The position numbers were made by a program, and so were the translations under genes. From contig JABDGD010000003.1 in NCBI GenBank assembly GCA_013286205.1, positions 16,558 to 80,557 on the forward strand: a DNA stretch of 64,000 nucleotides, in the 5' to 3' direction. The DNA comes from Candidatus Firestoneibacteriota bacterium (GTDB lineage Bacteria > Oederibacteriota > Muellerivitia > Muellerivitales > Muellerivitaceae). Below are positions 50,390 to 58,976 of this stretch, piece by piece. How positions within the stretch are numbered: the first letter of the stretch is position 1; each line of letters starts with the position of its first letter. The notes below the pieces were generated by a model, which was not told the origin of the DNA, made no database searches, and saw only the letters and a program-made list of their open reading frames with translations.

Positions 50390-51541
50390 CTAGTAGAACA
50401 TGTAAGCGTCTAGCACCGTGCCGTAAAAGGGGCCGGTGGTATAGTTTGCCGCGCCCGCCGTCGGATCCATCCGTTGAACATCTAATTGGCACTTCAAGTT
50501 GCGCACTGGGTAACAGCGGAAGCTGACCACATCCCGGAAGCCGTCAAAGCTGGCGCTTAAACTAGTGTCGGTTAAGTATTCGTTTACGAAGCGCAGATAC
50601 ATATTTTTCCCCAGATCAACTTCAACACTGGCGTGGTAGGCGGTGTAGTTGTTTTGCGGTACGACGGCGCCGCTGACCACGGTGTCATAACCCGAGTCAA
50701 ACTCACCCAAAATGACAAATGGGCCCAAGTGCGTCCAACCGAAAGCGCCGTAGCGCAGGTTGGTTCCGTACTGGCCGGCCACGCCGTTGGGCGTGTTCTG
50801 GTCGTAAATAGATCCGCCCAATGTGACTTCTTTCAGATTGATGCCGCCCTTGGCGGAGAAATCTTTATCGTTAGATGCCGCCGGATCATTAAAGGCCGCG
50901 GCGTTTAGGAAGAAAATCCCTGGATAAATACCAACCTCAATACCATCGGTGCTGAAAAAGGGATTGTTGAAAGTTAAAACGTTGGTATTACTTAAGTCGC
51001 CGCGCACCAGGCTATTGTCATCGGCTAATTGCAGACCATAGGGTGTCGTGAAGCGGCCCAGTTTGATGTAGGCATCTTGCGGCAAACCCGAGATAAGACC
51101 GTAAGCCTCGGTGGGGGAATTAATATCCAGGCGATAAGTGAAAACGCCGGAGATGACTTCATTCGCTTTAATGCCGATAGAAAAGCTTTGGCGGCCAAGA
51201 GGAACAAAAGGCGAATTGGGGTTAAAAGAAGCCAGGGTGCCGGTCGGCGCGGGCATAAAAAGGGCGCCGAAGCTTTCGTGCAGATCGACTCCCGCGCTGA
51301 TGAAGGTCGGGGTTTTGTGGGTGAAGGCCTGGGCGGTTTCAGCGATGCCCTGCCAGTCGAAAGTTTTCAGGTCGTTGCCGTAATTGCGGCCAAAGTCGTT
51401 GCGCAAATATCCGCCGGTTTCATTCATGTGGCAGGCGTTACAGTTAACGCCCTGCCAGGCGGCCAGATAAGGTTCTGCCCAAAGATTCGAGATTCCCAGC
51501 GCCATCAGAAGGATAGTCAGAATTCCTATCTGCTTTTTCAT
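50390..51541 (-). CDS. Cyc2-like fused monoheme c-type cytochrome / outer-membrane beta-barrel porin
   Basis: Signal peptide ([16 protein letters not shown]), then '[19 protein letters not shown]'. That gives a single CxxCH heme motif about 10 residues into the mature protein, preceded by a PxL motif as in Cyc2 homologs. The remaining roughly 330 aa are beta-strand-patterned and end 'LDAYMFY' (an OMP beta-signal). Confidence 0.55.
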   Translation of the reverse strand: [383 protein letters not shown]

Positions 51542-51680
51542 GAAAACTCCTGTGAGCCAGTTTTGATTTGAGCGTCTTTTTATAGAGGTGATAACCCTGA
51601 TACTTTAACTATTGTGTTGGGTAGGTAAATGTTACTGCTAAAAACTGTTTATGGGGCCTGAAGACCCGCTAAATGGGGGG

Positions 51681-52451
51681 TTAGAATGTTCTGGCAACCA
51701 TTAATTCGGTAGTACTTGCGGGGGAGTCGCTGAGGGATTCGCCCAGTTCGAAAAGCCATTCACCCGGTTGGAAGGCGATCTGGGGGATGAAAGCCCAGGA
51801 CGACCGGCTATTGGGCGCGGTGACAGCGGTCAGATCAGCTTCCCCTTGGATATACCAATCCCGGCTCAAGTGATAGCCCAGGCCTGTATTGGCTTTCCAC
51901 TGATTTGGAACTCGGGGATCGATCCCGCCCTGATAGCCATAGTTTCCCTCAAGGTAGAGTTTTCCCATGCGGTAACCACCCAGAACACTGGCGGACCAAC
52001 TGCTTCCCATCCAGGGGAAGGTCGTATTGGGAATGGCGTAAGCTCCGCCGCCCTCAATTGAAAAAGCTCCAGCCGTTTCGCTGGACCATCCTCCGAAATG
52101 ATAGAACTCATAACGTAAGTTAAGTCCGATGGGAGCCAGGATCAGGGGAACCTGCCCGAGGGGGTACTGGGTGCTCAAGTTTGGAAAATCAACCTCTAAA
52201 GCCCAATCGTTCGCGATGGCGAATAAGCCCTCTCCATAAAGATAAAGCCAACGATTAGAGGAAGTGTTGTTATCGAATGAAGCTGAAAAATAGTAGCTGT
52301 TTTCGATTTGCGCTGAATCAGTTTCCAGGGTTCGAATGATGCCGGGGTCGTTTTCCTGGGCGGGCAGGGAGGATGGAAGAAGTGCTTGGGCAGCCGCGCA
52401 GGCGGCTAAAAGCAGGAGGGAAACACTTAAGCGGGCCGAGATTCGGGTCAT
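51681..52451 (-). CDS. Outer-membrane beta-barrel protein (no heme motif)
   Basis: Signal peptide (LSVSLLLLAACAAAQA), alternating aromatic/Gly strand pattern, and a C-terminal 'LMVARTF'. Co-oriented immediately upstream of the Cyc2-like gene. Confidence 0.5.
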   Translation of the reverse strand: MTRISARLSVSLLLLAACAAAQALLPSSLPAQENDPGIIRTLETDSAQIENSYYFSASFDNNTSSNRWLYLYGEGLFAIANDWALEVDFPNLSTQYPLGQVPLILAPIGLNLRYEFYHFGGWSSETAGAFSIEGGGAYAIPNTTFPWMGSSWSASVLGGYRMGKLYLEGNYGYQGGIDPRVPNQWKANTGLGYHLSRDWYIQGEADLTAVTAPNSRSSWAFIPQIAFQPGEWLFELGESLSDSPASTTELMVARTF

Positions 52452-52607
52452 GTGTTTGGTCTCCTTTCTGAGTAGTTTAGGCGCGGGCCCCTCAACCGCA
52501 AAAGTCTAACCCCGAAACCCAAGGTTCGCAACATGGGAAAGGCCCAACGCCCATAAAACGCATTTATTTTTCGAAACCAATTCCTCTTCCTTCCTCTATT
52601 ACTATAA

Positions 52608-57685: not shown

Positions 57686-57714
57686 CGGCTTAAAGGGTTT
57701 TTAGGGCCTTGTTT

Positions 57715-57754
57715 AGCGGAGATGTGACATTGGTCAAATCTCCGCTATTTTTTT
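57715..57754 (+). terminator. Rho-independent terminator after cupredoxin paralog 2
   Basis: agcggagat-(14 nt)-atctccgct is a perfect 9-bp stem, followed by ATTTTTTT. Confidence 0.75.
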
Positions 57755-57869
57755 GCCTAAAGATGGGGTTTATGAGACCTTTTATCAGTGAAGATGAAAC
57801 TCTATATTTACTTGAAACGTCTAAATAGTAAGATCGATTTCTCGAATCCAAGGTTTTTGGAGGCTTCCC

Positions 57870-58976
57870 ATGAAAAAAGTTATTCTCTTAGCGTTAATTG
57901 CCGTTTTACTGCCCAGCTTGCTTTTGGCCCAGGAAGATAGAGGCGGCCGCGGCGAAAGAGGAGGGGATAGGGGGGGCGATCGCGCCAGCTCCTATGAAGG
58001 CTCGGGTGGCGGTTCGCCTCGCGCGGAAGGTTACCGGTCCGCAAGATCCGTTTCTCCCCGTTATCGATCCATGGGTGTGCGTAGTTACCCGAAAACTGTA
58101 GTCCGGAGCAAATTATTAGTGGCCGGCCGTGAACGTTCGTCGATTGCTTTTCCCGCTAGCGGACCCCACGGCGCGGCGTTGAACGCTCGCGTGGTGGCGC
58201 GTACCTCTATTAGCGGCAATCCCCTCATTAGAAGCCACATGTCGATCATTGCCGGGCCGTCTTTCAGAGCCCAGATTAATGTCTTCAACCGAAACGAAAG
58301 AGTGGTTGGCCAATACTATTGGCACACGGGCAATGGTTTTAATTACTGTCATTACTACGACCGCTGGGGTTATCACTGGTATGGCTGGTATTTGGGAAAC
58401 AATTATTTCTGGACCCGCTGGTACGCGAACAACTATTGGTGGTATGACCCCGCCTATTACCGCTGGTGCTACTGGCACGACGGCGGATGGTGGTGGCAGG
58501 ATCCGGATACGACCACGGTTTATATCTATAACAACGGCAGCTATGTATCGCCCGACGGACAGGTTGACGTGAACGTCAATTCTGACTCGCAGGCCGCGCT
58601 TCCGTCAGAGTCCGCTCCGCCCACTTCGAAAAATGTTTATAACAGCAAAGATGGAACCCGGCAGGTGAAAGTGGTGGGCAATGACGCCTTCTTATATGAC
58701 ATCTCGGGGGATAATGCTTTTAAACCGATTTTCATGGGTTCTAATGTGACCGGCGCGAAGTTTTCTAATTCGCAAAACGGAGGCGCTCTTCAAATTATGC
58801 TTTTATACGCGGACGGAAGTTTTGGATTGTTTGATGATATGGGAAACTCCATGAGCGGCGGCAATAGCGGCGCGACCAACCAGCCGGCTAGCGGCACGGG
58901 GGGCAATCAGCAAAATCCCCCTCCGCCCAATGGGCCTCAAGGCAATCCGCCGAACGTCCCTGGTTCGGGTACCTGA
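57870..58976 (+). CDS. Secreted Gly/Arg-rich and Trp/Tyr-rich low-complexity protein
   Basis: Signal peptide, 'RGGRGERGGDRGGDR', then the segment 'WGYHWYGWYLGNNYFWTRWYANNYWWYDPAYYRWCYWHDGGWWWQD', which has about 20 W/Y in 50 aa. Pro/Gly/Asn-rich C-terminus. Confidence 0.5.
   Translation: MKKVILLALIAVLLPSLLLAQEDRGGRGERGGDRGGDRASSYEGSGGGSPRAEGYRSARSVSPRYRSMGVRSYPKTVVRSKLLVAGRERSSIAFPASGPHGAALNARVVARTSISGNPLIRSHMSIIAGPSFRAQINVFNRNERVVGQYYWHTGNGFNYCHYYDRWGYHWYGWYLGNNYFWTRWYANNYWWYDPAYYRWCYWHDGGWWWQDPDTTTVYIYNNGSYVSPDGQVDVNVNSDSQAALPSESAPPTSKNVYNSKDGTRQVKVVGNDAFLYDISGDNAFKPIFMGSNVTGAKFSNSQNGGALQIMLLYADGSFGLFDDMGNSMSGGNSGATNQPASGTGGNQQNPPPPNGPQGNPPNVPGSGT

Follow-up and report, generated by a model that had tools for sequence, protein, structure and literature searches.

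What is a haem-bearing porin doing beside genes for blue-copper proteins, a c-type cytochrome and a stress-type sigma factor? The question is raised by positions 50390-58976 of a 64-kb stretch of contig JABDGD010000003.1 (the window, by which we mean the whole stretch analyzed), a span with ten open reading frames (ORFs) in the ORF listing, from an uncultured bacterium of candidate division FCPU426, a lineage of acidic peat and soil. The analysis indicates that a physical module under common control is real and is conserved in a subset of FCPU426, and that its central protein, a fused cytochrome-porin, is best placed in a sister family of the iron oxidase Cyc2. The interpretation we favor, which we hold at a little under an even chance, is that these genes encode a stress-inducible electron conduit across the outer membrane, most likely oxidizing dissolved Fe(II) and delivering the electrons to tethered cupredoxins and a cytochrome c. 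The genes on which this interpretation turns are the following.

50390-51541, minus strand: fused monohaem cytochrome-porin, 383 amino acids (aa); signal peptide, one CNACH, 16-strand barrel (modelled)
51681-52451, minus strand: predicted outer-membrane protein (OMP), family not known, 256 aa; signal peptide, terminus ...MVARTF, weak Porin_4 match
52608-53636, plus strand: XylF-like periplasmic binding protein (Peripla_BP_4; Pfam 3e-41); public gene calls begin at 52644
54434-55129, minus strand: NrsF/DUF1109 membrane anti-sigma factor (nrsF); Pfam NrsF 7e-14, full length; Cys145 and Cys195
55126-55686, minus strand: extracytoplasmic function (ECF) sigma factor (ecf), group ECF16-like; Sigma70_r2 and r4_2; TIGR02937 2e-22; overlap of 4 nucleotides (nt) with nrsF
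55861-56283, plus strand: cupredoxin lipoprotein 1 (cup1), 140 aa, GTG start; ligands H75, C114, H119, M133
56347-56994, plus strand: monohaem c-type cytochrome lipoprotein (cytc), 215 aa; lipobox GLGC, Thr-rich linker, one CSSCH
57212-57685, plus strand: cupredoxin lipoprotein 2 (cup2), 157 aa, a cup1 paralogue; ligands H90, C129, H132, M150

The initial annotation had listed six components, all of which are real ORFs at or inside this span; it left out the XylF-like binding protein, which is conserved in the cluster, and a TMEM175 channel, which is not. The second OMP gene that it placed just upstream of the cytochrome-porin gene is there (terminus ...ARTF, Porin_4 E 0.022), as is the ecf-nrsF pair transcribed divergently from cup1. 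The cup1 gene, with its GTG start, is uncalled in public gene calls of the identical contig (Logan SRR8424006, JGI 3300020663 and 3300020785), some of which put a 62-aa ORF on the opposite strand at this place; we take the gene to be real because its close homologues are annotated as plastocyanin.

A cytochrome-porin related to Cyc2

The cytochrome-porin begins with a signal peptide ending in ...LWA, carries its single CNACH at residues 34-38 and terminates in ...MFY. Across 41 aligned homologues the single N-terminal CXXCH after the signal peptide is invariant, the mature N-terminus is nearly invariant and the proteins end in FY. An AlphaFold2 model built from this alignment yielded the beta-barrel that had been predicted for 50390..51541, with 16 strands after residue 80 and a mean predicted local distance difference test score (pLDDT) of 72; the haem region is of low confidence, as expected because the model was built without haem. 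The best structural match of the modelled barrel in the PDB is OprP, and OprO and OprP are the templates reported for the Cyc2 porin (PMC8406198). None of 71 close homologues has a Pfam domain or an informative name, a PDB sequence search with the family profile returned nothing meaningful, and Pfam and NCBIfam searches of 48 diverse family members gave only sub-threshold matches to Porin_O_P, Porin_4 and LbtU, so no curated family covers these proteins.

Keffer et al. (2021) define Cyc2 by an AXPXFAR[Q/K][T/Y] motif upstream of CXXCH, described as unique to Cyc2 and serving as an inclusion screen, by a PXL downstream and by a length of at least 365 aa, most Cyc2 proteins having at least 400 aa (PMC8406198). 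At 383 aa the cytochrome-porin is long enough and shorter than the motif-defined Cyc2 set, and its predicted fold is the 16-strand, OprO/OprP-like one of Cyc2. Its upstream motif agrees at A, P and A, has L for F and is mismatched at R, Q/K and T/Y, the family consensus being AEPYLAAWK. The downstream PXL is absent, with no proline in the stretch after CXXCH, where the family signature reads CH-V-N-x-T-G-G-x-x-R-N. The protein had been described as having CxxCH after a PxL motif; the signal peptide and the single CxxCH stand, and the PXL of Cyc2 lies downstream of the haem site, the upstream signature being the longer motif given above (PMC8406198).

A Cyc2 reference set was obtained by scanning a metagenome collection for FARQT-N3-CxxCH, which gave 77 full-length ORFs that were trimmed to start 28 residues ahead of the motif (409-512 aa, median 454 aa). 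They read A[VL]PSFARQTGxxCxxCH...P[EQ]LTxFGRxFK, and the gap from motif to CxxCH was 3 residues in every scan match, the same spacing as in the cytochrome-porin. A surrogate hidden Markov model (HMM) of these 77 motif-bearing sequences, used in place of the FeGenie Cyc2 models, scored the window protein at 4.9 bits (E 0.96 among 1,684 targets), so the direct match expected of a Cyc2 protein was not obtained. Because the motifs are absent and this score is so low, the cytochrome-porin would fail the published Cyc2 screen and very probably FeGenie as well.

A more remote relationship is nevertheless supported by profile comparison. Searching 1.84 billion representatives with the family profile (hmmsearch) returned 963 proteins at E<=1e-3, counted as clusters at 50% identity, of which 388 were at E<=1e-10; full-length matches among the 150 listed are nearly all 345-430 aa and carry [AS][EL]P[YR][LF]A.R.G..C..CH[VT]N.[TS]GGG.R, and some members (ALPRFAARTG, AFPRFAAKY) come near the Cyc2 motif. 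Aligned with the Cyc2 set by hhalign, this wider family gave probabilities of 95-97% (E 3e-8 to 7e-11) and the FCPU426 family alone 59-94%, with reversed controls below 1%. When the alignments were split, the signal lay wholly within the first 48 mature residues (95-97.5%, E 3e-8 to 6e-12; reversed controls 9-14%), which supports remote homology of the two haem modules, while the modelled barrel appears to have its fold and strand number in common with Cyc2 barrels, without detectable sequence similarity. A tblastn search of plasmids with a family member, in which annotated Ralstonia/Burkholderia Cyc2 proteins were sought, found no match.

Compared with the A. ferrooxidans Cyc2, Mariprofundus Cyc2PV-1 and Leptospirillum Cyt572 (PMC8406198), the family thus has in common the signal peptide, a single CXXCH about 12 residues into the mature protein, an A-x-P-x-hydrophobic-A upstream, FG[KR]x[FY] downstream, a 16-strand barrel with OprP as its best structural match and a C-terminal aromatic residue. 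It differs in having LAAWQ/K where Cyc2 has FAR[Q/K][T/Y], in lacking PXL and a direct HMM match, and in a length of 360-400 aa against the median of 454 aa; Fe(II) oxidase activity, moreover, has been demonstrated for several Cyc2 clusters (PMC8406198, PMC13647500), whereas the cytochrome-porin is known here from sequence and a model. The initial claim of a Cyc2-type protein therefore holds for architecture and not for membership: judged by the family's own sequence criteria this is not a Cyc2, and it is best described as a sister-family member within a Cyc2-like cytochrome-porin superfamily. The MtoAB, PioAB and MtrAB conduits are two-protein complexes of 26-strand barrels and decahaem cytochromes, whereas here there is one polypeptide with 16 strands and one haem.

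Tethered copper and haem carriers

The linkage of the cytochrome-porin gene to two type-1 copper cupredoxins and a monohaem cytochrome c was borne out. Each of cup1, cytc and cup2 reads as a lipobox cysteine followed by a Thr/Pro-rich linker. The cupredoxins, 49% identical to each other, belong to a family of 23 sequences, some annotated as plastocyanin, whose profile matched plastocyanin (3.9e-8) and amicyanin (1e-6) in the PDB. In the alignment of the 23 sequences (A3), H75, C114, H119 and M133 are invariant and make up a type-1 copper ligand set. In the profile alignment H75, C114 and H119 fall on ligand residues of plastocyanin; M133 was assigned from its invariance and position because the plastocyanin alignment ends just short of the Met. 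A model of cup1 (AlphaFold2, pLDDT 80) matched pseudoazurin and plastocyanin in Foldseek at a probability of 1.0. The cupredoxins are plastocyanin/amicyanin-like type-1 copper proteins. A rusticyanin identity was rejected, the match to TIGR03095 being 21 bits against a cut-off of 146.7 and confined to the ligand-loop region.

Fold and His-Cys-His-Met ligand set are common to these proteins and to plastocyanin, amicyanin and pseudoazurin, but the ligand loop is not. Where those proteins have 2-4 residues between His and Met (Cys-x2-4-His-x2-4-Met), cup1 has 13 and cup2 has 17, and the insertion holds conserved cysteines. One pair, C122/C130, is invariant and a second, C89/C127, is lost in concert in one subgroup, a pattern that suggests two disulfides stapling the loop. 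Also different is the lipoprotein anchor with its Thr/Pro linker, which in some relatives becomes a linker of several hundred residues followed by a Por_Secre_tail-like domain.

The cytochrome has the lipobox GLGC, a Thr-rich linker of about 90 aa and a C-terminal domain reading CSSCH...QMP...WINEGALNN, which across loci takes the form CxSCH...C...C(S/A)PQMP...W(I/V)NxGAPNN. It and its homologues gave only weak matches to PSCyt1 and Cytochrome_CBB3, and the CxxCH with its conserved QMP identifies a His/Met monohaem cytochrome c.

An ECF16-type switch and its predicted promoters

The sigma factor, with Sigma70_r2 and r4_2 domains, overlaps, and is presumably co-transcribed with, a gene for a DUF1109 protein of six transmembrane (TM) segments, whose NrsF match (E 7e-14) spans profile positions 2-204 of 204 and whose cysteines 145 and 195 are 50 residues apart. 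This arrangement matches, at the sequence level, group ECF16 (SigF/NrsF type), and the overlapping six-TM DUF1109 gene and the cysteine spacing are as in Caulobacter SigF-NrsF, B. japonicum EcfF-OsrA and Azospira SigF-NrsF. The equivalent cysteines of Caulobacter NrsF (C131/C181) and B. japonicum OsrA (C129/C179) are needed for anti-sigma function and/or the stress response, and systems of the SigF/NrsF type respond to oxidants and to Cr, Cd and Cu (PMC3511200, PMC3420878). The regulons known for ECF16 protect the envelope against oxidants and metals. By experiment the ECF16 promoter has been defined as GTAACC-N16-CGAA in Caulobacter and as GTAAC(g,a)-N14-15-(c,t)CG(t,a) in B. japonicum. Three candidate promoters of this kind were found in the window.

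51603-51635, minus strand: predicted ECF16-type promoter of the cytochrome-porin gene, GTAACATTT-N14-ATAGTTA, 94 nt upstream of the gene
55704-55736, minus strand: predicted autoregulatory ecf-nrsF promoter, GTAACATT-N14-ACTATTCAT, 50 nt before the start codon
55767-55799, plus strand: predicted ECF16-type promoter of the cupredoxin/cytc operon, GTAACATTT-N14-AATACACAT, 94 nt upstream of cup1

The window holds exactly three GTAACATT sites, which precede the ecf, cup1 and cytochrome-porin genes, each in the transcribed orientation. Their number alone is not significant (3 observed against 1.4 expected), so the argument rests on position, orientation and conservation. The hexamer GTAACA is strongly depleted in the window: about 18 copies would be expected and 7 were observed. 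The predicted ECF promoters account for three of these, a pattern consistent with selection against spurious sigma-binding sites. A terminator-like site stands after the cytochrome-porin gene, and none interrupts the series cup1, cytc, cup2; the genes for the 256-aa OMP and the binding protein have no ECF promoter motif.

Conservation was examined in the relatives described in the next section. In two of them (L003 and L004) the -35 box and the -10 element (ACTATTCAT, AATACACAT, ATAGTCA) are kept at all three promoters while the spacers diverge, and GTAAC-N17-CTAT stands at -49 to -56 of all ten ecf genes. A weight matrix from these ten ecf promoters found three further sites in 377 kb, both strands searched, which lie upstream of a cytc gene (L018), a cupredoxin gene (L020) and a cytochrome-porin gene (L009). 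The whole-promoter matrix is too spacer-specific to score the cup1 and cytochrome-porin promoters of the window, and footprint alignments were therefore relied on for these two. Like motifs also precede the cupredoxin(-cytochrome-porin) genes of L001, L011, L018, L019 and L020. Co-regulation of ecf, cup1-cytc-(cup2) and the cytochrome-porin gene by the ECF sigma factor is, on the strength of this conserved motif, a well-supported inference. The predicted system would be autoregulated, its GTAAC -35 box lying some 16 nt ahead of the -10 element, as in the known ECF16 systems; it differs from them in the -10 element itself (CTAT/ATAG in place of CGAA), in its host, a non-proteobacterial candidate phylum, and in its predicted regulon of cytochrome-porin, cupredoxin and cytc genes in place of MsrP/methionine-rich peptide or bufferin genes.

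Recurrence of the module in FCPU426

Scanning one genome per species gave 21 related loci, 20 of them distinct, and the 20-kb loci were compared by tblastn with the window proteins. Most of the 21 come from FCPU426, a candidate phylum without a cultured member, and the lineage, which had been described as FCB-like (Fibrobacterota-Chlorobiota-Bacteroidota), is this candidate division. A block of genes for the cytochrome-porin, 256-aa OMP, binding protein, NrsF and ECF sigma factor recurs in L001/L012, L003, L004, L011, L016, L018, L019 and L020 and partly in L022, with proteins 45-84% identical between window and relatives. The linkage of these five genes was counted in 10 distinct loci of relatives, most of which also have a cupredoxin or cytochrome c gene next to the cytochrome-porin gene. 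The check on synteny that had been called for thus came out in part: the cluster is conserved in a subset of FCPU426 relatives, and eight of the 20 distinct loci are without it. Because the same genes recur together and have a promoter motif in common, their co-occurrence is not chance.

Within the block, the 256-aa OMP is 57-79% identical in relatives and always lies within the cluster; its profile found no solved homologue in the PDB. Wherever a relative has the cluster, the gene for the XylF-like binding protein separates the OMP gene from nrsF (L001, at 5082-6068, L003, L004, L011, L016 and L018-L020). It is an orphan, lacking ABC permease and ATPase genes, and its NCBIfam XylF match (3e-71) is below the cut-off; the protein may be a co-sensor or may have an unrelated conserved role.

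The carrier genes accompany the cytochrome-porin gene in several arrangements. In six loci (L001, L011, L018-L021) the cytochrome-porin gene is immediately preceded by a cupredoxin gene on the same strand, and in two of these, L001 (7686-9929, plus strand) and L011 (8064-9935, plus strand), the cupredoxin forms the N-terminal domain in a protein of 623-747 aa, followed by a Thr/Ser/Pro linker of about 400-500 aa and a C-terminal domain with a weak match to Por_Secre_tail, the sorting domain of the type IX secretion system (E 0.0025, below the cut-off). This sequence architecture hints that the blue-copper protein of L001 and L011 is displayed on the cell surface. At both fusion genes the automated gene calls are spurious opposite-strand ORFs. 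Homologues of cytc adjoin the cytochrome-porin gene in L014, L018 and L023, directly follow nrsF in L016, and adjoin one or the other also in L003 and L004. In L001 an operon for a resistance-nodulation-division (RND) transporter and a CzcB-like adaptor with a heavy-metal-binding domain (1-3326, minus strand) lies about 1 kb from the cluster.

What the module may do

As we picture it, an ECF16 (SigF/NrsF-type) regulon would build an electron-transfer module across the outer membrane. The cytochrome-porin would hold a single c-type haem on its first mature residues, the same design, to judge from the model, as in the Fe(II) oxidase Cyc2. What is oxidized at the pore haem would be a dissolved reduced metal ion, in acidic peat or soil most probably Fe2+, and the electron would pass to the tethered cupredoxins and cytc and then to a terminal oxidase encoded elsewhere in the genome. 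Since the switch is an envelope sensor of oxidant and metal stress, the module would be primarily protective, keeping the oxidation of a Fenton-active metal outside the cell, and would not serve constitutive lithotrophy. Extended to the family, the proposal becomes more tentative, and we regard it as possible and as rather unlikely: that a sister family of Cyc2 comprising about 1,000 clusters (50% identity) and spanning FCPU426, Planctomycetes, Latescibacteria, Gemmatimonadota, Acidobacteriota and cultured Thalassomonas, wired in FCPU426 through ECF16 to tethered blue-copper proteins and a cytochrome c, forms a conduit, inducible by stress, through which metals are oxidized extracellularly (or electrons dumped). 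If true, neither this physiological role nor this regulatory logic would have a described precedent among porin-cytochromes.

Several results weigh against a protective metal-oxidizing conduit. Known ECF16 regulons contain methionine-sulfoxide reductases and copper-chelating peptides, not electron conduits, and at the ten ecf genes and at target genes the -35 GTAAC box and spacing are those of ECF16 promoters, with CTAT/ATAG at -10 instead of the proteobacterial CGAA. The strict Cyc2 signature is absent from the cytochrome-porin, the surrogate HMM gives no match and the barrels alone reach at most 4% against Cyc2 barrels in hhalign. In the eight loci outside the cluster (L006-L010, L013, L015, L017) the cytochrome-porin gene lies between YfhO-like and polysaccharide lyase 14 (PL14) genes, without cupredoxin, cytochrome or ECF genes, and the promoter motif occurs in one of the eight. 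A neighbour-joining tree interleaves these loci with the cluster-bearing ones, so the linkage is evolutionarily labile, and a separate paralogue in the YfhO/PL14 loci was rejected on the same ground. Four Latescibacteria-like genomes have a family member among housekeeping genes, without redox neighbours, and another is found in heterotrophic Thalassomonas. Finally, genes for an oxidase, a bc1 complex, a dihaem c4 cytochrome or cytochrome maturation were not found in the 64-kb window, where the scan covered large ORFs by Pfam (at least 150 aa upstream of 46000) and the cluster genes; the other 46 kb hold lipopolysaccharide (LPS) heptosyltransferases, esterases, regulators and large secreted proteins, and nothing respiratory. 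The relatives' 20-kb loci, examined by tblastn and ORF inspection, likewise contain neither an aa3 oxidase (coxBACD) nor a dihaem c4 Cyc1. Substrate, direction and electron sink therefore have to be inferred, there being no oxidase context like that of rus.

The initial annotation had seen in these genes a variant of an extracellular pathway of Fe(II) oxidation or electron transfer, and had compared it with the Cyc2-rusticyanin-cytochrome c chain of Acidithiobacillus; in its strong form this is a dedicated, energy-conserving pathway equivalent to that chain. The likeness to the rus operon (cyc2-cyc1-cup-coxBACD-rus) is real insofar as an outer-membrane cytochrome-porin is linked to cupredoxins and a c-type cytochrome, here apparently also co-regulated with them, and the architecture and the remotely homologous haem module recall a family with Fe(II) oxidase activity demonstrated in several clusters. 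The analogy stops there: the rus operon has an oxidase and a dihaem c4 cytochrome, whereas no cox, pet or cyc1 genes are nearby here and the cytochrome has one haem; rusticyanin is replaced by plastocyanin/amicyanin-like cupredoxins with a long, putatively disulfide-stapled ligand loop; and the carriers are lipoproteins on Thr/Pro tethers under an ECF16 sigma/anti-sigma pair. Together with the missing Cyc2 motifs and HMM match and the loss of linkage in 8 of 20 loci, these differences make a dedicated lithotrophic pathway improbable, and the stress regulator fits a protective response better. That regulator also invites a reading in which the genes form a regulon for copper or thiol-reactive metal homeostasis, with the cysteine-rich-loop cupredoxins buffering or oxidizing Cu(I) like CopI and the haem-porin and OMP controlling metal passage. 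In its favor are the response of ECF16 systems to Cu, Cr and Cd, their control of copper-chelating bufferins in Caulobacter, the extra cysteines beside the copper site, a faint CopI match (E 0.14) and the heavy-metal efflux operon (RND/CzcB) found 1 kb away from the L001 cluster. The invariant His/Cys/His/Met set and the plastocyanin-like fold, however, indicate type-1 copper sites of the electron-transfer kind, the extra cysteines behave as two disulfide pairs and not as a free-thiol metal site, and covalently bound haem and a c-type cytochrome would be left without a role, so that this too seems improbable to us.

Electrons might instead flow outward, exported under stress to surface-tethered carriers that reduce Cr(VI), Fe(III)/Mn(IV), humics or reactive oxygen and chlorine species. 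Oxidants and chromate are the ECF16 inducers, the long linker and Por_Secre_tail-like domain of the L001 and L011 cupredoxins suggest surface display, and one Planctomycete family member lies beside MtrC-like and DOMON/EB_dh haem proteins. We consider such export distinctly improbable, given that blue-copper proteins are usually of high potential and better at accepting electrons than at donating them, that no quinol dehydrogenase is linked to the cluster and that the sorting-domain match falls below its cut-off. Very improbable, in our judgment, is that the genes are mere neighbours and the haem-porin a general diffusion porin, its haem structural or sensing and unrelated to the cupredoxins. 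The eight YfhO/PL14 loci and the housekeeping surroundings in Latescibacteria-like genomes would suit that explanation, as would the NCBI annotation of the Thalassomonas copies as "porin", but it leaves unexplained the conserved ECF promoter motif that the genes have in common, the operon-like pairing of cupredoxin and cytochrome-porin genes in six loci and the adjacency of cytc, which arose in different arrangements (L014, L016, L018, L023).

The wider family and its use

Named members of the family come from Thalassomonas viridans and T. actiniarum (annotated "porin"), Planctomycetes, Latescibacteria, Gemmatimonadales and Polarisedimenticolaceae. In Thalassomonas viridans CP059733, a cultured gammaproteobacterium (L144, 5489-6922, plus strand), the family member lies directly downstream of a gene for a 477-aa protein in which cytochrome c and cytochrome P460 domains are combined, and the two may be partners open to experiment. 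A Planctomycetes metagenome-assembled genome (L151, 1222-10813) has a family member that seems to form an operon with genes for a dihaem cytochrome c and for a 447-aa protein of unknown kind; the neighbouring genes encode a 1,173-aa EB_dh/DOMON protein and one with an MtrC/MtrF-like domain.

No genetic marker for microbial Fe(II) oxidation is used more widely than Cyc2, and because its search tools require the FAR[Q/K][T/Y] motif, which is absent from the sister family, these roughly 1,000 clusters would go unseen when iron-cycle genes are surveyed in soils, peat and sediments by current means. In FCPU426 the cluster makes a concrete and testable case: the genes are few, a promoter is predicted and homologues of the sensor respond to oxidants and metals. 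It could show whether fused cytochrome-porins serve envelope protection besides lithotrophy. It also offers a first functional handle on a candidate phylum without a cultured member, and genetics are feasible because cultured Thalassomonas species carry a family member.

Other genes of the window

Three further ORFs fall within the span.

53703-54371, plus strand: TMEM175-type potassium channel
57049-57153, plus strand: 34-aa ORF (MKIIILVLSLLVLGLSVTACGNNNSPTSSKNSGY) with a clear lipoprotein signal, between the cytc and cup2 genes
57870-58976, plus strand: 368-aa secreted protein closing the span, W/Y-rich

The TMEM175 gene is inserted between the binding-protein gene and nrsF in the window genome only. 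The 368-aa protein, which has an Arg/Gly-rich N-terminal part and an extremely Trp/Tyr-rich core (e.g. WYGWYLGNNYFWTRWYANNYWWYDPAYYRWCYWHDGGWWWQDP), matched no family and has no homologue in any related locus. Both genes were considered as parts of the module and left out because they are absent from the relatives. A defence-system reading was dropped, PADLOC having returned no match on the window. A YfhO-like gene (42234-44273, minus strand) lies 6 kb from the cytochrome-porin gene, and four paralogues of glycosyltransferase family 9 (GT9, heptosyltransferase) stand in a row at 35509-42271 (plus strand), consistent with an LPS-bearing outer membrane in FCPU426.

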